IMG/VR virus record: IMGVR_UViG_3300022923_000005
Span: 68,572 to 132,571 of that record
Length of the DNA stretch: 64,000 nt
DNA from: a virus
Taxonomy: Duplodnaviria; Caudoviricetes
Direction: 5' to 3' (one strand)
Below are positions 3,140-38,866 of this stretch, piece by piece (the first letter of the stretch is position 1; every line of letters starts with the position of its first letter). Made by a program: the position numbers and the translations under genes. The notes beneath the pieces were generated by a model. The model was given only the letters and a program-made list of their open reading frames with translations. It was not told the origin of the DNA and did no database searches.

Positions 3140-4054
3140 CTATCTGTACTCCCAAACCACTACCATTCCAGAACGTCCTGTACCACCTCTTCTTCTACCT
3201 CGAGGAGCACCTGTTCCGCCTGTTCCTTGTGATGCTTGTCCTTCACGTTGTGATACTTGAGGACCACTGTCGTGAACTCCAATACTTGATCCACCAAAAT
3301 AACCATTACCGCCAGCGCCGCCACCGTGGTGTGTATGACCTGCACCGCCTCCACCGTAAATGTTTAAATTACCTCCTGAACCAATACCTGGGCGTCCACC
3401 TGAGTGTCCACCTACTCGTCTAGCACCTTCTCCGCCTGACGCACTTAAATATGGTCCAAATGATGTTGTTCCGCCATTACCAGCACTGTTATGGTAGTTT
3501 ACACCACCTCCACCACCGCCAATGGAAATACTTACTGAACTAATACTTGATACATTTAGATATTCTTCTGCATATCCACCTGATCCGCCTGCTTCTCCGT
3601 GACCTGTTCCGCCACCTCCGCCGCCGATTACTTGTACTCTAATTCTTGTTACACCTGATGGTTTACTCCAAGTTGTGTTACTTGTGTAAACTCTACAAGC
3701 ACTTAAACCTGTTTCGCCTGTAGTTGGATTACCACTACCGTCTGTTTTAATATTTCTTCTAGCAGATCCGCCGCTGTATGCTAAACCAGTACCACCTTTT
3801 GATCCTGAAAGAGCTCCGCCTACTTTACTTCCTGCTAAGTCAATACTATTATTACCTAATTTACTTGCTGTAATTGCACCGTCTGCAACATCACCTGTTG
3901 GAATACTTGCGTTTGCAAGTTTGGCTTCTGTAATTGCTCCAGTATCAAATTTTGGAGTATCAATTGTTGTTCCTGCAACGTCATTTGCAACAATAGTTGT
4001 ATCAACTAGGCCTTCGCCTGTAATTTTTTGTAATCCTTCGTAACTAAATGCCAT
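3140..4054 (-). CDS. Gly-rich tail fibre/tip protein, paralogue 2
   Basis: Start moved to 4054 (MAFSYEG, matching MAISYEG and MPFNYNS; TAATG overlap with the upstream stop). Same architecture as its neighbours. Confidence 0.7.
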   Translation of the reverse strand: MAFSYEGLQKITGEGLVDTTIVANDVAGTTIDTPKFDTGAITEAKLANASIPTGDVADGAITASKLGNNSIDLAGSKVGGALSGSKGGTGLAYSGGSARRNIKTDGSGNPTTGETGLSACRVYTSNTTWSKPSGVTRIRVQVIGGGGGGTGHGEAGGSGGYAEEYLNVSSISSVSISIGGGGGGVNYHNSAGNGGTTSFGPYLSASGGEGARRVGGHSGGRPGIGSGGNLNIYGGGGAGHTHHGGGAGGNGYFGGSSIGVHDSGPQVSQREGQASQGTGGTGAPRGRRRGGTGRSGMVVVWEYR

Positions 4055-4965
4055 TATCTTAAACTCCAAACAACTACCATACCGGATTTTCCACTTGCAC
4101 CTCTTCTACGTGCTTGTGGTGCGCCAACACCACCACTTCCGGGTGCTGCTTGACCTTCACGCTGTGATGGTTGCGGTCCACTATCGTGAACTCCAATGTT
4201 TCCTCCACCGAAATAACTAGTACCTCCGTGTCCTCCACCGTGGTGCGTATGGCCTGCGCCACCGCCTCCGTACATATTAATATTACCACTTGATCCAATG
4301 CCTGGTCGTCCGCCTGTGTGTCCACCAACACGTCTTGCACCTTCGCCACCACTTGCTGATAAGTAAGGACCAAAACTTGATGTTCCTCCATTACCTGCTT
4401 GGTTGTGATAGTTAACGCCGCCGCCTTGTCCGCCAATTGTTACACTAACTGAACTTACGCCTGTTACATCAATGATTTCTTCTGAGTAACCACCTGCGCC
4501 ACCTGCTTCTCCGTGACCTGAACCACCTGCACCTCCACCAACTACTTGTACTCTTACTCTAGTACAGCCTGTTGGTTTACTCCAAGTACTGTTTCCTGTG
4601 TACACATTACACTGAATAAGTCCACTAAATCCCCATTCAAGTGCATTACCTGAATTGTTTACCATTAAAGTTCTATCAGCAGTTGTCGAAGTTAATGCCG
4701 TACCACCGTTGGCAACAGGTAATGTACCGGTCGGTATGCTGCCTGATAAACTAACTGCACCGTCTGCGATAGCAGTTTCAGTAATACTAGTATCACCTAT
4801 TTTATCAGCAGTAATGTTTGCTGCATTAATTTTATCACCTGTAATATCTCCTGCTGCTACTGATGCTGCGTTAACTGCACCTCCAGCAAAATCATCACCT
4901 GTTAATGATGCATCAACAATACCTTCATTTGTAATCTTCTTAACACTGTTATAATTAAATGGCAT
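4054..4965 (-). CDS. Gly-rich tail fibre/tip protein, paralogue 1
   Basis: Same architecture; AGGAG RBS upstream. Confidence 0.7.
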   Translation of the reverse strand: MPFNYNSVKKITNEGIVDASLTGDDFAGGAVNAASVAAGDITGDKINAANITADKIGDTSITETAIADGAVSLSGSIPTGTLPVANGGTALTSTTADRTLMVNNSGNALEWGFSGLIQCNVYTGNSTWSKPTGCTRVRVQVVGGGAGGSGHGEAGGAGGYSEEIIDVTGVSSVSVTIGGQGGGVNYHNQAGNGGTSSFGPYLSASGGEGARRVGGHTGGRPGIGSSGNINMYGGGGAGHTHHGGGHGGTSYFGGGNIGVHDSGPQPSQREGQAAPGSGGVGAPQARRRGASGKSGMVVVWSLR

Positions 4966-4980
4966 TTACAAATTCTCCTA

Positions 4981-5322
4981 TTAAATCGCCTCTACAAGCC
5001 AGCCACTTGCTGTACCTGAATAAACTAATGTAAAAGCCGCACCCTCTGTACTCACTGTCATAGTATCTGCATTACGCATAATCTTATGTGACCCAGGATC
5101 AACTGTTAAGTTGTTTGTTTGAAACGATCCATTTACATCAAAAATCTTAATGATGTCTCCTACGAAAGGGTTACCTGGTAGGTCTAATGTTGCTACACCT
5201 GACGAAGTATCTACAAAATAAATTTTGTTTGCTTCAATTGCTTGGCTAGCATTAATCGATTCCTGAGCGAAGAGTGAGGGAGGTACAACTCCTCTTGGAT
5301 TTGCTTTAACTTCTCTTCCCAT
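4981..5322 (-). CDS. Small virion protein, fibre/baseplate attachment-type beta domain
   Basis: YFVDTSSG..TLDLP.NP.VGD.I.I.D..GSF..NNLTV pattern resembles T4 gp9/gp10/gp34-type domains. Confidence 0.5.
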   Translation of the reverse strand: MGREVKANPRGVVPPSLFAQESINASQAIEANKIYFVDTSSGVATLDLPGNPFVGDIIKIFDVNGSFQTNNLTVDPGSHKIMRNADTMTVSTEGAAFTLVYSGTASGWLVEAI

Positions 5323-5336
5323 CTTTTCTCTCCTCG

Positions 5337-5657
5337 TTATACTGTTGCTGTTTCAATGCCGTATGCTACTGCACTGACGTTAATTGTGTCAGAACGTACA
5401 ACTAAAACTTTGTTAGCGTCCATTACAATACCTGTACGCTCAATAACTGAATTACCAACTAACTCTGAATCAAATTCAATAAATTCATCATTTGCTGGTG
5501 TTGCACTTGCGGACACCGCCACTCTAATTTTTGCCGAACTAGCATTCCTATTACATACAGACAGTGTAATTACACTAAAAGTATCTGCTGGAACAGTGTA
5601 CAGAGTAGTATCTGTAGCCGCTGCTAGATCTGCTGTTCCTAATCTTCCTGTTGCCAT
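5337..5657 (-). CDS. Small virion adaptor-like protein (family also at 19187 and 23299)
   Basis: LYTVPA..ITLSVCNR...IVM....L.V pattern shared with the two other ~110-125 aa genes. Confidence 0.55.
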   Translation of the reverse strand: MATGRLGTADLAAATDTTLYTVPADTFSVITLSVCNRNASSAKIRVAVSASATPANDEFIEFDSELVGNSVIERTGIVMDANKVLVVRSDTINVSAVAYGIETATV

Positions 5658-5679
5658 TTTACATTTTCTCCATTATGTT

Positions 5680-8600
5680 TTATGTTAAGAAGTAACTCCA
5701 CGCTACTGGTAAACCACGCACACCGCCTTTAAAGTTCATATTTGCATCAACATTAATTGCCTGTTGTGTTGTAGTTGTTATAGCATCAGCAGCAATGTAT
5801 ATGAAACCTGCTGTAACACTATTTACGTTTAGTGATGCACCACCACCACCAATTTGTGAACTAATGTACGCTTTAATTGCTCTCTGCGTAGGTACAACAC
5901 TATCACTATCTGCTGTAAAGAATGGATCTGTACTAAATTCGTCAATACTTGCTGATCCACCACCTAGTGTAACTTCACCCAGTGATAGTTCTTGTAGTCC
6001 TGCAATGTTAAATGCATCTGCATTCAATGTTGCAACACCAGTTGATTGTTCAATACTAAACAAGTCACCAACTCTAAAGTTACCGTCTTGGTCAGTAGCA
6101 GTGAAGAACACTCTACCACCATTACGCTCTCTAGTTTCATTGGACTGTATTGGATCCTGTAAAGGATCATTTGGATAGTTTGTTTCTGTAAACGATCCAG
6201 TACCAATGTCTAGGAAGTCGTGTCCTGTTAGACGTACTTGTGAGTATCTAATTCTTGTAGTAACACTTGTACCGTGCGGTGGAACATTAATAACTTTCAT
6301 TTCTGGTGATATCTGTAAGAAACAAGTTAATGCACCATCGTTTGATCCAAGTAGTGTAACAATGTTAACCAACTTGAATGTTTCGTTTGGTAAGTGTCCA
6401 AATACAATATTTGATCCTGTTGGCGGAAGTGAACTTAATTGTCTAATTGCAATAAAGTTTCCGCTTTGGAAGAAGTCTGCATAACCATTACCGCCTACTA
6501 AGTCAGCACTTGCTGAAACGTATCCTGTACCTCTACTTCTTAATGAAGGAGTAGCAAGTACACCGCTTCCTGTTCTAACTTCGAATGGTAATGCATAAAT
6601 CTCACTTGGATCTGTAATTGTCATTGTAGGTGCAGTATCATATCCTGAACCTGGTTCAGTAATACGAACTTCAAAGATTTTATTCTGAGCTACTCCAGCT
6701 CTACCTTTTGTAGTTGCACCTGTTTTAATTCTGTATACACCGTCGCCTGTATCTGTATCAATAATTGTCCAGTAACCTACACGCTGATGTGTACCAAATG
6801 CTACAGCACTAAATCCGTTTGATGTAACATCTCCAGATCCAACACCTTGCCAAGTAAAGTTAAAGCCATCTTGTGACATAGCAACGTATGAATAACCTTC
6901 GCCATCTTCACCTGTTTTGTATGCAGTAATCATAAACTGACCTTGGCCGTATGCAATTTTCTGCAATCCTGCTGGTGTAGTTGAGTCTGGTGAACTAATA
7001 TCTTTGGATTTCCAAGTTGCACCTTTATCAATACTAACTGCAATTGTGCTGCTGTCTGTTGCTGTTGCAACAAAGTGGTTTTGACCAAATGCTATACTTG
7101 ACCAAGCACTTGCTCCTGGTAAAGTAGTTACATCTACCCAGTTAAGTCCTGCGTCAACACTGTAAGCAGCAGTTGTTGTACCTGATTTAACTGCAATCAT
7201 TGTACCTTGTCCTGCTGTAATTGCAGTAAAGCCTGTGCTGTTTAAAGTTCCTGTTACGTCCCAAACTTCACCGTCTAATGAAATCGCTACAGTTGTACTA
7301 TCACTTGCAATTGCAATAAATCTTTGGTTGTAATTATCGTATGTTACGTCAATCCAACTTGCACTTGCTGGTAAACTAGTTGCTGTCCAAGTAATACCGT
7401 CTGCTGAGTAAGCAGCATTTGATGTTCCTGAAGCAACTGCAACTATTCTAGCAACCTTAGCAATGGATGATCCATCGTCAATTTTACCTGATGCCATTGC
7501 AGTCCAGTTAGAAGCACTTGGTAATGTTACTCCACTCCAAGTTTTACCGTCAACGCTTCTTGCGCCGCCTGCACTACCTGTTTGTGCTGCAACAAATGCA
7601 CCTGCTCTACCGTAACCTGCTGTGTCAACTTCAAGGATTTCTCCTGTTGCACTATTAATTGCTGTTACTGTTAATGTAATATCGTTAACACCGTCAACAC
7701 CACCTAACTGTGATCCTGTAATTGTTAAGTCTTCAAGTCTAGTATAACCAGTACCGCCTGATACAACACTAACTGAGTACTTCCATCCGTTTCTAATTAC
7801 TTGGAAGGACGCACTTGTACCAGTGCCGCCTGTTGCTGTCGGTAAGTAAACATCAGCAGTTTCAATAAATTGTGCTGTTGTCCAAGTACCTGAACTTGGC
7901 ATTGTACTAACTTCTGTTCCAAATCCTGGATCGCTAAACTGTATTCTAGGTTCAACAATGTATGTTGAAGAAGCATCTGGTGCTTGAATTGTAGTACCTG
8001 CTACAATGTGATCCCAGCCACTCGCGCCATCGCTTTCTCTAATTACTGCTGCAAGTTTTGTACCTGCATTGTATGCACTAATTAAACCAAACTGTCCAAC
8101 ACCTGCACCGCCTGTAACATATACTTTCATTCCAACATATGCTGAGCTAATTTCTGCATCAGTTGCTGCAAGTGTAATTGCACTTGTAGTACCACCCTGT
8201 GCTGTGTTAGCGTTACTTACGTAACCAAATCCACCAAAGTTACCAACTACTTCTGGAGCATTAGCACTATCGTCTACGTTGTCTTGTAAGAAAACACTGT
8301 GTACAGCGTTATCTCTAAACTCGTCAACAATTGCTGCTGCGCCTGTACCAGCACCTGAAATTAGGAACTCGCCTTCTTCGTAGTCAATACCAGCATTTTC
8401 AAATTCAAATGCGTAAACTTCTTCTGCATTGTCTGTTGTAACGTCTTTAACTGTTGCTTCATACTGGAATTTGTTATCTACTATAGCAGTTTGTGGTGTT
8501 TCTGAACCATCAAAGCCTTCTGCTACTGAACCAAAGTCACCGTATGAGTTGTTACCATTTGTACCTCTAATTCTTCCACCTTCAGTTGACAAGTAACCAA

Positions 8601-35205: not shown

Positions 35206-35245
35206 ATAAATAGTTATTGTAAATATATACAACAATGTTATTTAT
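35206..35245. promoter_or_regulatory. Face-to-face late promoters (ATAAATA + at 35206-35212, ATAAATA - at 35245-35239)
   Basis: One motif per strand in the 78-bp gap between divergent genes, plus a second TAAATA on + at 35220. Confidence 0.6.
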
Positions 35246-35256
35246 CGGAGAAAAAT

Positions 35257-36180
35257 ATGGATGAAAATACAGAAATGCCAAAGGTTGAAATTGCCGGGCA
35301 GCCTGCTACTAGTGGCGCACCCCAACAGGCAGCGACTCCAGCGGCTCCTGTCAATCCGTTAGCCGGCTATTATAGACAGCCTAAAGTTTACCTAAGATTG
35401 CCAAGTGGTGGCAAATGGTATCAAGAAGGCACACTCGATGTAAGTGAAGATGGACAATATGCTGTGTACGCAATGACAGCAAAAGACGAATTAATGTATA
35501 AGACACCAGACGCTTTAATGAATGGTGCAGCAACAACAGAAGTTATAAAAAGTTGTATTCCTGCAATCAGAGAACCGTGGAAAATGCCTACACTTGATGT
35601 AGACGCTTGTTTAGTTGCTATTAGAATTGCAACTTACGGTGAGAAGATGGAAATTACAACAACGTGTCCTGCTTGTAAAGAACAACAAAATTATGACTAT
35701 ATGCTAAGTGAGCATTTAGAAAGAATTAGTGGATTTCAATATCCAGAACAGTATACAATCGGCGACCTTAACTTTACTTTGAAGCCTTACAACTACAAAG
35801 AAGTAACGTCTAAACAATTACAACAAATGGAACAAGAAAGAATTTTCCAAGTTATCAATGACGAAAAAATGTCGGAAGAAGAAAAACTTGAAAGATTTGG
35901 TTCTAGTTTTATTAAATTAACAGAAATGACTGTTGCTGTAGTTGTTCATAGTATTGCTTCAATTACATCACCGCAAGGTACTGTAACAGATAAAGATATG
36001 ATAGCAGACTTTATTACTAATGCTGATAAAGAAATATTTAAAAGCCTTAGTGAACATCTTCAAAGTGTTGCTGCTAACCTTGAACTTAAAACTAAAAAAG
36101 TTAAGTGTGGTGATTGCGAACACGAGTTCGATGTTGCATTGACAATGGATCAAGCAAATTTTTTCGGAGCAAAATCTTAA
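35257..36180 (+). CDS. gp26: Baseplate hub assembly protein (T4 gp26-like)
   Basis: LPS.G..Y, MTAKDE, AIRIATYGE, two CxxC pairs (CPAC, CGDC), ends ..ANFF. Confidence 0.7.
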   Translation: MDENTEMPKVEIAGQPATSGAPQQAATPAAPVNPLAGYYRQPKVYLRLPSGGKWYQEGTLDVSEDGQYAVYAMTAKDELMYKTPDALMNGAATTEVIKSCIPAIREPWKMPTLDVDACLVAIRIATYGEKMEITTTCPACKEQQNYDYMLSEHLERISGFQYPEQYTIGDLNFTLKPYNYKEVTSKQLQQMEQERIFQVINDEKMSEEEKLERFGSSFIKLTEMTVAVVVHSIASITSPQGTVTDKDMIADFITNADKEIFKSLSEHLQSVAANLELKTKKVKCGDCEHEFDVALTMDQANFFGAKS

Positions 36181-36204
36181 CCCTTTCTCGTCCTGAGATT
36201 TTGC
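36156..36204 (+). other. Putative programmed -1 ribosomal frameshift signal
   Basis: In-frame A_AAT_TTT_TTC (two overlapping X_XXY_YYZ heptamers) followed by stem GCAAAATCT (36169-77)/AGATTTTGC (36196-204); the -1 frame is open to 36392. Confidence 0.65.
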
Positions 36205-36392
36205 GTGAAGCCGAAAAACTAGATAAAGAGGCGAGGAATCTGAAGAGAGAACTTCTTAAAATGTGTTGGTATATGAGAGGTCTTTCTTACAGTGAACTTG
36301 CGAATATGTCTTTTGAAGAACGTGAAATAATCAACGATATTATCAAAGATAATTTAGAAACTACAAAGAAAACCAAACTGCCGTTTTTCTAA
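36162..36392 (+). CDS. gp51-like hub assembly segment, probably made as a -1 frameshift extension of the gp26-like protein
   Basis: WYMRGLSYSEL.NMS.EER..I resembles the gp51 core; no convincing RBS or start of its own. Confidence 0.6.
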   Translation, partial: FRSKILTLSRPEILREAEKLDKEARNLKRELLKMCWYMRGLSYSELANMSFEEREIINDIIKDNLETTKKTKLPFF

Positions 36393-38866
36393 GCGGCAAG
36401 TTCTTTCTTAATAATTGCTTGTACTTCTGGTTTTAGTTTCTTAATCTGCACAACCAAATCTCCCATATTAACCGGTGCTGCCGGTGTCTTTTGGGTAGGA
36501 TTATAATCTTTCTGTCCTTGTGTTCTATCAGGAGCAGCGTACGGCTCTTCGCCTGGATTGGCTGCTGCATCTGGTTGTGTATCTGTGCTTGTAGCGTCTT
36601 GTGCTGGTGTTTCTGCATCTTGTGGTGTAGTTGTAGCATCAGCACCTTGATCACCTGCTGTTGACGCTGTATTCGCGTCTGTTGCGCCATCTTTTGATGT
36701 TGTAGTGCTAGTAGTTGAAGTAGTTGCTTGAGTATTCAATTTGTCACGTAGTTCTTCTGCTTCACCAGGTTGTAATGCTTCACCTTTTTCAACAGGTTGA
36801 TCTGTCTGTGTGTCCAAAACGTCATAGGTTTTTGGATTTTGTGCATTTGGTTGCATAATAAATTTATCACCTTCTTGTGGTTCAAACTTACCTGCTTCTT
36901 TATTCATTTTATCACTCATAGGTTCTGCTTTTTCAGGAGCAAGTCCTACGCCATCCTTAATAGGCTTACTAGTTTGCTTATCAATAATGTCTACTTTTGT
37001 TTCGTCTTTTGTATTTTTCTGTAGATAGTATCTTTCATCTTTACTTGATGTAGTACCACCTGTTGTTGGAGTGGCACTTGTTGTAGCAGTATCCCCTGTT
37101 GCTGCTGCATCATCAGTTGGCGCATCAGTATCTGTAGCGCCTGCATCAGTTGCTGTATCTGTCGCTGTGTCAGTTGCTGTATCTGTAGCACCTGCATCAG
37201 TTGCAGTGTCAGTTGCACTTGTATCTTGTGCAGCATCAGCGGCTGGCTCTTGTGCAGTTGGAAGTTCAATCTTCATTGCATCATAAGTGCCTTTAATTAC
37301 ATCATCTGCTACACCTGCTGGTTTTAAAACTTGGTCTGCAATTTCGTTTGAGTCTGTAGGTTCACCTGCTTTTTGCCAAGCCTTCATAAGTTTGTCTGCT
37401 GTAACTTTTGCAGTTAAGTTTCTACCTGCTTGTTTAATAGCACCTACACCTTTACCTATAGCGCCTGCTGCTTTTTTAAGAATTCCAGGTGCTTCGTTAA
37501 TAGTCTGTCTATTATAATATGCCACTGCATCAAATACACTTTCAAACATCAACTTGTTTTCTAGCATATGATCATTTACTTGTGTAATTTTATTGAACAG
37601 TAAATAAATCTGTCCTTCTGAAAGTTTTGTACCTGTGTATGTTTTGCTTTCTTGTGCTGGTGCTTCGCCAGTTAGTTCTGCTTTTTGTTCTGGACTTACA
37701 GGTTTTGCATTGTGCTTGTTCTTAGCGTTGTCATCAACTGTTTGTAAAGCACCCTGTGCTGCTGCGGCTACAGGTCCGCCTACATCCATAATTTTTTCAA
37801 TTGCTGCATCTGCATTATCAAGCACAGCCATCGCTTGTTCTAGTTGATCACTTGTTAGTGCATCTCTTGGTATATCACCAACTGTTTTTGCAAGTGCTGT
37901 TAAACTTTCATTTGCATCTTGTGTTGTTGATAGGAATCCGTGTAACTTACCTGCTGCTTCATAATATTCTGGACTAAAAGTTTTTGCACTGTTTGCTGCA
38001 TCTGATAATGCTTTATATTGTGCTACCTGCTCAGGAGTCATTGTTAAATCATAATTGTAATAGAAGCCGTTGATGTTACCTGACATTTTTAAATTCTGAG
38101 CACCGTCAAGTACACCCGAATCAAATCCTGCATCTGCTACTGCTTTGTCCACTGCTGCTGTAAAGTTGGCTTTTTCAAAACCATCCATCATTGCAGTTGC
38201 TTCTGCTTCACTACCTGCGGCAATGTTGTCAATAATGTTGTCTGTAATACCTTGGATTGCTGCGCCAGCAAGAGCACCATATGCTGCTGTTTTAACTGAC
38301 TTACCAACTGCTGTTGATAGTTTTTCACCTTGTAGTAAATCTTTTGTTGCTCTAGCAAGGAAACCTGCAACAGCACCGCCTAATGGTCCGCCTGCAATAG
38401 CAGCCGCTGCTGTAAGAATACCAACAGCAATACTTGCTTTGCCTGGATTGGCTTTTGCCCAATCACTTACTGCTTTCACAGCGTTTACTACTTTAGAATC
38501 TTTTGCACCAATTTTTGTTTTTAGTTCATCAAATTTTTGATCTGCATTTTTAACAGGTCCTGCTTGTTGAACTGCTCTGCCCAGTTCATTAATTTTTCCG
38601 TCAATCCATTTAAGTGCTTCAACAGGTAAGCCTGCAATGTCTTTTGCTTTACCAACACCAGTTCTGTTGTCGCCTGCTTCGTCAGCACCTTTTTCAATGC
38701 TGGTAAACAGTTGTGTAATTTGCTGTTTTGAAAGTGCTGCTTCAGTAACGTATCTTTCAACATCTGCTACCCAAGGCTGAATAGTCTTTTGTTCAAATAA
38801 AGTAAATGCAGGATCATTCCAACCTTCACTGATCAGTGTTCTTTTTTGCAGTTGACTTAGTCTCAT
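36389..38866 (-). CDS. Probable head-packaged (internal/ejection) protein, 825 aa
   Basis: Several gp21-type [LIV]xE sites, a hydrophobic Gly/Ala hairpin and Thr/Asp/Ala low-complexity linkers. Confidence 0.45.
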   Translation of the reverse strand: MRLSQLQKRTLISEGWNDPAFTLFEQKTIQPWVADVERYVTEAALSKQQITQLFTSIEKGADEAGDNRTGVGKAKDIAGLPVEALKWIDGKINELGRAVQQAGPVKNADQKFDELKTKIGAKDSKVVNAVKAVSDWAKANPGKASIAVGILTAAAAIAGGPLGGAVAGFLARATKDLLQGEKLSTAVGKSVKTAAYGALAGAAIQGITDNIIDNIAAGSEAEATAMMDGFEKANFTAAVDKAVADAGFDSGVLDGAQNLKMSGNINGFYYNYDLTMTPEQVAQYKALSDAANSAKTFSPEYYEAAGKLHGFLSTTQDANESLTALAKTVGDIPRDALTSDQLEQAMAVLDNADAAIEKIMDVGGPVAAAAQGALQTVDDNAKNKHNAKPVSPEQKAELTGEAPAQESKTYTGTKLSEGQIYLLFNKITQVNDHMLENKLMFESVFDAVAYYNRQTINEAPGILKKAAGAIGKGVGAIKQAGRNLTAKVTADKLMKAWQKAGEPTDSNEIADQVLKPAGVADDVIKGTYDAMKIELPTAQEPAADAAQDTSATDTATDAGATDTATDTATDTATDAGATDTDAPTDDAAATGDTATTSATPTTGGTTSSKDERYYLQKNTKDETKVDIIDKQTSKPIKDGVGLAPEKAEPMSDKMNKEAGKFEPQEGDKFIMQPNAQNPKTYDVLDTQTDQPVEKGEALQPGEAEELRDKLNTQATTSTTSTTTSKDGATDANTASTAGDQGADATTTPQDAETPAQDATSTDTQPDAAANPGEEPYAAPDRTQGQKDYNPTQKTPAAPVNMGDLVVQIKKLKPEVQAIIKKELAA
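37120..37220 (-). repeat. Coding tandem repeat (TDTA/TDAGA units)
   Basis: Protein ATDTATDAGATDTATDTATDTATDAGATDTDA; DNA 12-15 nt units. Confidence 0.75.

Follow-up and report, generated by a model that had tools for sequence, protein, structure and literature searches.

A probable programmed -1 frameshift in a gp26/gp51-family hub chaperone gene of an uncultured jumbo phage

Can a single baseplate-hub chaperone gene of the T4 type encode two proteins by programmed frameshifting? This question is raised by a locus in the IMG/VR virus record IMGVR_UViG_3300022923_000005 (Duplodnaviria; Caudoviricetes), of which positions 68,572 to 132,571, a stretch of 64,000 nucleotides (nt) referred to below as the window, were analysed. 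Tail assembly chaperone frameshifting is a classic, nearly universal trait of long-tailed phages, and the roles of the T4 proteins gp26 and gp51 have been unclear for decades. According to Atkins et al. (2016, PMC5009743), the G-T frameshift is a conserved trait of the long-tailed phages, "except T4". An earlier note, made from the letters of the window, had proposed that a gp26-like gene is joined by a -1 frameshift to the open reading frame (ORF) overlapping its 3' end, yielding products of 307 and ~378 amino acids (aa). This proposal is now strongly supported comparatively, by an invariant slip site and register, the lack of a conserved start in the second frame, naturally fused long forms and gene copy number, and it is very probable, as judged from these comparisons, that the gp26-like gene makes a 307-aa and a 378-aa product through a programmed -1 frameshift, as counterparts of gp26 and gp51, respectively.

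The 307-aa product of the gp26-like gene (Table 1) is matched over residues 72-303 by the Pfam family PF12322, T4_baseplate (6.5e-15, 55.9 bits, curated cut-off 24.5), the gp26/gp51 family, and also by phrog_150, "baseplate hub" (2.8e-17). As the source record is 132.6 kb long at a CheckV completeness of 38%, the source virus is a jumbo phage of roughly 350 kb; a single PF12322 gene is found in these 132.6 kb. Among named phages, the gp26-like gene has its nearest relatives in the jumbo myoviruses Atu_ph07, Phosso and PA5oct and in the Rak2-like group (CBB, GAP32, 121Q and others), with ~26-32% identity. In the AlphaFold model of the short form (predicted local distance difference test, pLDDT, 76.5), residues 298-307 are disordered, and these last ten residues are the part that differs between the short and the long product.

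The 3' end of the gp26-like gene reads GCA AAT TTT TTC GGA GCA AAA TCT TAA, and the sequence statements of the earlier note (the ORF at 35257-36180, the positions of two overlapping slippery heptamers and the -1 frame open to 36392) were each rechecked and found correct. Homologous loci were then aligned. The set of split loci, in which the two parts lie in different frames, numbers 159 and spans about 26-90% protein identity: 81 from the window clade (the window and 80 IMG/VR loci at 51-89% protein identity), 7 from named jumbo phages and 71 from a second, much more divergent IMG/VR set of 78 loci, which was gathered with an alignment as the query, the single fused protein P0240 having retrieved none. 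The heptamer T_TTT_TTC (U_UUU_UUC in the mRNA) was found in register in 81/81 window-clade loci and in 6/7 named jumbo phages, the seventh, RsoM2USA, having a T9 run; in the distant set, 71/78 loci are split, and 71/71 of these carry the -1 extension and TTTTTTC in register. The exact T6-C run is therefore present in 158/159 split loci, while the codon register is fixed in all 159. Neither a split homologue without a slippery site nor a varying frame offset, either of which had been named in advance as speaking against the frameshift, was encountered. Such invariance of the heptamer and the -1 register across 159 homologous loci is far beyond chance.

The codon usage around the slip site is equally constrained. 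All 81 genes of the window clade contain xxT TTT TTC near their end, followed by 4-6 codons and then the stop (1-6 codons past the heptamer among the relatives as a whole). Synonymous variation at the three slip-site codons is zero in this clade, whereas minor synonymous codons make up 19-43% at its other invariant residues (e.g., Cys TGT/TGC 31/23, Asp GAT/GAC 44/10 and Gln CAA/CAG 39/15), and TTC accounts for only 23% of the Phe codons elsewhere in the gp26-like gene. The codon preceding the T run is AAT, GAT, AGT, ACT or CAT (Asn, Asp, Ser, Thr or His) across the relatives and always ends in T. Of the two overlapping heptamers described earlier, both are indeed present in the window, but T_TTT_TTC alone is conserved; given the variation in the preceding codon, A_AAT_TTT is, by this alignment, incidental. 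T_TTT_TTC is also missing from the loci in which the long form is continuous (see below). Among tetramers, U_UU.C ranks second in its tendency to shift, and heptamers of the type H_HH.U_UU.Y belong to the most efficient ones in Escherichia coli (Sharma et al. 2014, PMC4066793). The slip site of RsoM2USA reads GTT TTT TTT TCC (L087:2262-2283), with T9 in place of T6-C and an unannotated extension ORF downstream; this locus offers a natural test case for distinguishing ribosomal from transcriptional slippage.

Beyond the heptamer, the -1 frame reads RSKILTLSRPEIL... and stays open up to a TAA at 36390-36392, such that residues 1-303 plus the 75-residue extension would give the 378-aa long form. 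The length of the extension is about 71-77 codons in all complete loci and its frame is always -1; in the window-clade loci, the -1 frame continues for 69-72 codons and the +1 frame shuts within 5-37 codons. The earlier impression that this ORF lacks a good start was borne out, as no start codon is conserved across the loci. Among 58 distinct extension sequences, the first ATG falls at codon 1, 2, 6, 12, 18, 24, 32, 36 or 47; most close relatives have it at codon 32 or 36 (the ATG at codon 36 being the Met of a WYMRG motif), and the window has it at codon 32, downstream of the most conserved N-terminal motif, and the distant second set of loci likewise shows no conserved extension start. A scan of the PA5oct extension for ATG, GTG and TTG found none whatsoever. 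Of the N-terminal motifs, R-x-K/R-I/L-L-x-x-x-P-E-I is conserved best; it begins with the first -1 codon itself, where the extension still overlaps the 0-frame tail, and the 0-frame tail after the slip site is variable among relatives. These alignments, with the natural fusions described below, show the extension to be a true C-terminal domain of the PF12322 protein family and not a gene with its own start.

Public annotations treat the extension inconsistently. In GenBank, it is started at an overlapping ATG in Phosso and 121Q, at an internal Leu codon in a Vibrio phage and at an internal ATG in CBB and Atu_ph07, and it is unannotated in PA5oct (L003:3831-4058) and RsoM2USA; outside these last two phages (L001, L002, L085, L086 and L088), it goes as a "hypothetical protein", the start of which is arbitrary and differs from phage to phage. 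Gene callers applied to public metagenomes give extension ORFs of 63 to 95 aa. No family was found when the 75 aa were scanned against Pfam and PHROG, and a tblastn search of phage genomes with the extension matched Phosso solely. One Joint Genome Institute (JGI) record labels an extension homologue "aMBF1".

Long forms encoded without any slip also exist. An index-free profile search with the extension returned 346 relatives; among the 150 of them that were listed, ~19 are single-ORF proteins of 319-351 aa, the C-terminal 75 residues of which match from profile position 1, and in these proteins the extension match comes after a CxxC motif. (A word-indexed search for longer, fused forms gave one 145-aa protein only.) At the DNA level, the long form is one continuous ORF in seven IMG/VR loci, where the T6 run is absent and the junction, x-F-R, contains one Phe codon only; a 2-nt difference in the T run therefore interconverts the split and fused states.

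The number of PF12322 genes differs between the two states. The frameshift type has one such gene per genome, as seen in PA5oct, CBB, Atu_ph07 and 121Q and in five large IMG/VR records (two of them 99-100% complete), whereas genomes with a continuous long form have two: adjacent and on one strand in five IMG/VR records, and divergent in T4 (gp26 and gp51). The split is without exception, 9/9 frameshift-type against 6/6 two-gene genomes, although two of the two-gene records are near-identical. The two-gene state, with both genes adjacent on one strand, is that of a minority of the related jumbo phages (L090-L095 and L138). In one of these loci (L092, 1156-5893), a 350-aa long form (3971-5023) is followed by a 283-aa short form (5042-5893), adjoining a tape-measure-like gene. 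These two-gene uncultured jumbo phages resemble the window in the protein family, the extension domain and the place beside a tape-measure-like gene, but differ from it in that the long ORF is continuous, the T6 run is absent and the short form comes from a second paralogue. The short and the long form are thus supplied either by one gene with a slip or by two genes, and this is the strongest argument for a need of both products and for a programmed slip.

A stem-loop lies immediately downstream of the heptamer. Its nine Watson-Crick pairs are formed by GCAAAATCT (36169-36177) and AGATTTTGC (36196-36204), with a closing U-G pair (36178/36195), and the 0-frame stop is enclosed by the structure, the minimum free energy (MFE) of which is -11.5 kcal/mol in the window. 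Across 44 distinct clade sequences, 90.5% of the cells pair, compared with 81% in shuffled alignments (0/500 shuffles reaching the observed value), and pairing drops to 32-53% when the partner arm is slid by 1-3 columns. Double-sided compensatory changes were counted in 46 cells over four pairs in the same sequences; for example, columns 24/57 are UA in 18, CG in 12 and AU in 7 cases, and columns 26/55 are AU in 26 and GC in 13, while columns 27/54 are GC in 34 and AU in 10, with zero mismatches. At one covarying pair, a replacement of Lys by Arg is coupled to a synonymous change of a Leu codon, a combination that, as read from the alignment, is not explicable by protein constraint alone. The stem described in the earlier note, with its nine base pairs plus one G-U and the enclosed stop codon, was thus upheld and gained compensatory changes, but its spacing is 3 nt from the functional heptamer rather than 6 nt. 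Distant lineages carry hairpins of their own, many of them 5-7 nt and some 12-18 nt past the heptamer, and RNAalifold gave no consensus structure for a mixed distant set, the hairpins being lineage-specific; the downstream hairpin is, on this sequence comparison, a recurrent feature that is positionally non-homologous across lineages. No Rfam family was found at the slip site.

These observations are best explained by the following decoding. Most ribosomes would translate the 0 frame as far as the TAA at 36178 and release the 307-aa short form. With TTT and TTC (36160-36165) in the P and A sites, some ribosomes would slip back by one base, both tRNA-Phe would re-pair on UUU, and decoding would restart at CGG (36165), adding 75 residues to give the 378-aa long form (..DQANFF-RSKILTLSR..). 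The slip is presumably ribosomal in nature, and the stem-loop 3 nt downstream probably stimulates it. From one gene, the two forms would provide what T4 has in gp26 (the short protein) and gp51 (the long one, i.e., the PF12322 domain plus a C-terminal tail), and frameshifting would set a fixed ratio of short to long product from one late transcript beside the tape-measure gene.

Several observations weigh against this interpretation. The stem begins only 3 nt past the functional heptamer, less than the usual 5-9 nt, its energy is modest (z -1.6), RNAalifold retains only five of its pairs in the clade, and the position of the hairpin varies among distant lineages. In addition, the palindromic AGATCT core of the stem codes for two similar peptide motifs (K-I-L and E-I-L), and part of the pairing therefore comes free. 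Support for homology between the extension and the gp51 tail is no more than moderate (hhalign probability 57%, see below), and a profile of the extension alone gave no alignment with the single gp51 sequence. Extension homologues have no precomputed Pfam domain in the protein database, and in several relatives an ATG overlaps the stop (as ATGA in Phosso and Atu_ph07), which permits translational coupling in these phages.

This last point bears on an alternative in which the -1 ORF is translated alone, by coupling or re-initiation, into a separate protein of ~40-75 aa, the T run being kept for its Phe-Phe. The ATGA overlaps and a TAATG in 121Q fit this alternative, as do the small ORFs predicted by gene callers and the F-F that T4 gp26 has near its end without a slippery site. 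However, Phe-Phe does not account for 100% TTT TTC with a T at the preceding wobble position, and the F-F of T4 is coded TTC TTT. Moreover, a conserved start is lacking (PA5oct has no start codon whatsoever, and the first ATG of the window is codon 32, past the conserved motif), the alignment of the natural single-ORF fusions begins with residue 1 of the extension, and the correlation between one-gene and two-gene genomes would be left unexplained; two separate proteins are accordingly very unlikely in our view.

Transcriptional slippage, by which RNA polymerase would add one U on the T6 run and the long form would arise from altered mRNAs, is unlikely. The outcome, a fusion to the -1 frame, would be identical, the signal is a homopolymeric T run, and on runs as long as the T9 of RsoM2USA slippage of bacterial RNA polymerase is appreciable. 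Slippage favours longer runs, however, whereas the run is exactly T6-C in 158/159 loci; T6 is short for bacterial or T4-type transcription, and the codon register is fixed. A covarying downstream stem is, furthermore, a hallmark of ribosomal recoding, and U_UUU_UUC is a documented efficient ribosomal motif. The possibility that a mutation or a homopolymer sequencing error split a continuous gene, which would fit with the error-prone nature of homopolymer runs and the continuous forms of some relatives, is effectively refuted by the comparison, as 159 independent assemblies, among them finished isolate genomes from many laboratories, have the same split and the same frame, and purifying selection acts on both parts.

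Table 1. Features of the locus (positions are those of the window)
Feature	Position	Strand	Remarks
gp26-like baseplate-hub assembly chaperone gene	35257-36180	+	ORF listing; 0-frame product 307 aa (short form)
Slippery heptamer T_TTT_TTC (U_UUU_UUC), 0-frame (AA)T TTT TTC	36159-36165	+	Invariant in register across relatives
Second heptamer A_AAT_TTT	36156-36162	+	Present in the window, not conserved in relatives
-1 frame extension, 75 codons (RSKILTLSRPEIL...LPFF) and stop	36165-36392	+	Open frame; conserved in relatives
0-frame stop TAA	36178-36180	+	Four sense codons beyond T_TTT_TTC
Stem-loop	36169-36204 (arms 36169-36178 / 36195-36204)	+	9 Watson-Crick pairs and one U-G, 16-nt loop
Tape-measure-like gene, 879 aa	32539-35178	-	phrog_794 tail length tape measure protein (5.5e-16) and other tape-measure PHROGs
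Terminator-like hairpin	36379-36398	+	Consensus scan only; straddles the -1 ORF stop

How does the programmed frameshift proposed here relate to the two T4 genes? In Table 2 of Leiman et al. (2010, PMC3004832), gp26 (208 aa) and gp51 (249 aa) both appear as hub assembly chaperones, and PF12322 covers residues 1-206 of 208 in gp26 and residues 1-201 of 249 in gp51. T4 gp26 ends with ..EFFELL, coded GAG TTC TTT, which contains no slippery site, and gene 25 comes next. The earlier note had described T4 genes 26 and 51 as separate; they are indeed two genes, but they are paralogues, divergently transcribed and not in tandem. The short form of T4 thus ends ..FFELL, while its long form runs on (..VFKLLVNPDEI..) at the point matching the frame junction of the window, and the sequence of gp51 goes on as ..DVFKLLVNPDEI.., the corresponding part of the transframe product of the window being ..NFFRSKILTLSRPEIL....

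In hhalign, a profile of the transframe product and the natural long forms aligned with the gp51 family colinearly through the junction over 199 columns (E 1.1e-4, probability 57%), with window residues 90-366 placed on gp51 residues 43-247 of 249, and the tails alone, extension against gp51, gave an E-value of 6.8e-4. The global mode of hhalign was rejected because its alignment was mis-registered on the two Cys pairs, and an hmmsearch with the hidden Markov model (HMM) of the transframe product against T4 gp26 and gp51 returned ~4 bits, at the zinc ribbon, the two being too distant for this search. These profile comparisons suggest that homology between the extension and the gp51 tail is probable. 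In the protein database, homologues of gp51 are listed with a second domain, PF28602 (from a newer Pfam release); for PF28602 on homologues of the extension, none is recorded.

In terms of sequence correspondence, the predicted 378-aa product is the counterpart of gp51 and the 307-aa product that of gp26. The -1 ORF by itself appears to correspond only to the ~48-aa C-terminal tail of gp51 beyond the PF12322 domain. The label "gp51-like" that had been given to the downstream ORF does not hold, as this ORF matches the C-terminal tail of gp51 only, and it is the whole transframe product that would be equivalent to gp51. The window and T4 have in common the membership in PF12322 and genes that adjoin hub and tape-measure genes. 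They differ in the length of the tail (~48 aa in gp51 versus 75 aa in the window) and in that T4 has two divergent genes and no slippery site.

The -1 frameshift is, in the papers cited in PMC5009743 (Levin 1993; Xu, Hendrix and Duda 2004, 2013, 2014), conserved in tail assembly chaperone genes, of which lambda gpG/gpGT is the example. The window resembles lambda in that a small tail-assembly gene, the neighbour of a tape-measure gene, would yield a short product and one with a C-terminal extension through a -1 slip close to its 3' end. As gpG/gpGT are not found in virions, so the gp26-like homologues of the relatives are unlisted in virions: they do not appear among the virion proteins listed from mass spectrometry for CBB and PA5oct, although absence from a list is weak evidence. 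The tape-measure-like neighbours, in contrast, are abundant in both lists, and the homologue in CBB is a virion protein with 29 peptides. The two systems differ in heptamer, U_UUU_UUC in the window versus G_GGA_AAG in lambda, and in gene orientation, as lambda G lies upstream of its tape-measure gene on the same strand. In the window, the tape-measure-like gene adjoins the gp26-like gene but is transcribed divergently; its adjacency, noted earlier, was therefore confirmed (by phrog_794), with the correction that it is not a downstream gene on the same strand. A tape-measure-like neighbour is also present in Phosso, PA5oct, CBB, 121Q and L092, and the adjacent but divergent arrangement recurs in relatives.

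Structural comparison did not extend this resemblance. The natural long form P0263 was modelled with AlphaFold as a proxy for the window's transframe product (pLDDT 88.7; predicted template modelling score, pTM, 0.85), and its extension forms helices at 262-271, 275-302, 309-313 and 317-337 (pLDDT 82-92); in this model, an extension folded as a small three-helix bundle is possible but unproven. A Foldseek search of the PDB gave nothing at E<=0.001, a sequence-profile search of the PDB found nothing relevant, and the Pfam and PHROG scans gave no tail assembly chaperone hit. With VIA-align wide, the best Z was 4.5 for the long-form model, and the short-form model retrieved generic helical hairpins only. 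Two candidates from these comparisons were rejected. The HK97 tail assembly chaperone 2ob9_B aligned with residues 1-96 of P0263 at noise level (Z 3.9, root-mean-square deviation (rmsd) 4.2, 80 aligned), and the likeness did not recur with the window's short-form model; an engrailed homeodomain variant aligned with residues 273-315 (Z 4.5, rmsd 1.2, 41 residues), also within noise. In BFVD, the matches were without exception "baseplate hub" proteins of the gp26/gp51 type, which came from many myoviruses. The link to lambda G/GT drawn in the earlier note thus stands for the shared logic, but homology was found neither by sequence nor by fold, and the resemblance is, by analogy, one of functional logic only.

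A search for a published paper or a GenBank annotation describing a frameshift in a gp26/gp51-family gene found none (subscription-only journals were not covered). A broader proposal, finely balanced and in our judgement tilting slightly towards doubt, is that the gp26/gp51 family would be the T4-type counterpart of the lambda G/GT pair, with the U_UUU_UUC slip as the ancestral or majority state in T4-related and jumbo myoviruses and T4 as a derived two-gene version. If this were true, a short and a long form in a set ratio would be needed to build the hub and the tape-measure complex, the "except T4" gap would be removed, and the "catalytic" role of gp51 would gain a concrete model. A frameshift in T4's own hub-chaperone family, in relatives of T4, would join two literatures, and it would provide a testable model for gp26 and gp51, namely the same domain with and without a C-terminal adaptor in a fixed ratio. 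In terms of annotation, hundreds of genomes would be corrected, including Rak2-like, PA5oct-like and Atu_ph07-like phages and many metagenomic phages.

With respect to the surroundings of the gp26-like gene, the terminator-like hairpin sits between two convergent genes, 36165-36392 (+) and 36389-38866 (-), and is consistent with a transcript that would run past the 0-frame stop and end beyond the -1 ORF. The tape-measure-like protein matches no Pfam family, only tape-measure PHROGs, and it contains a long hydrophobic stretch rich in Gly and Ala (~residues 540-720), while its C-terminal part is rich in Lys and Glu. The 78-nt gap between the two divergent genes contains two late-promoter-like sequences of the T4 type, ATAAATA at 35206-35212 and TGTAAATATATA at 35218-35229, and a GGAG is located 8 nt ahead of the ATG at 35257.

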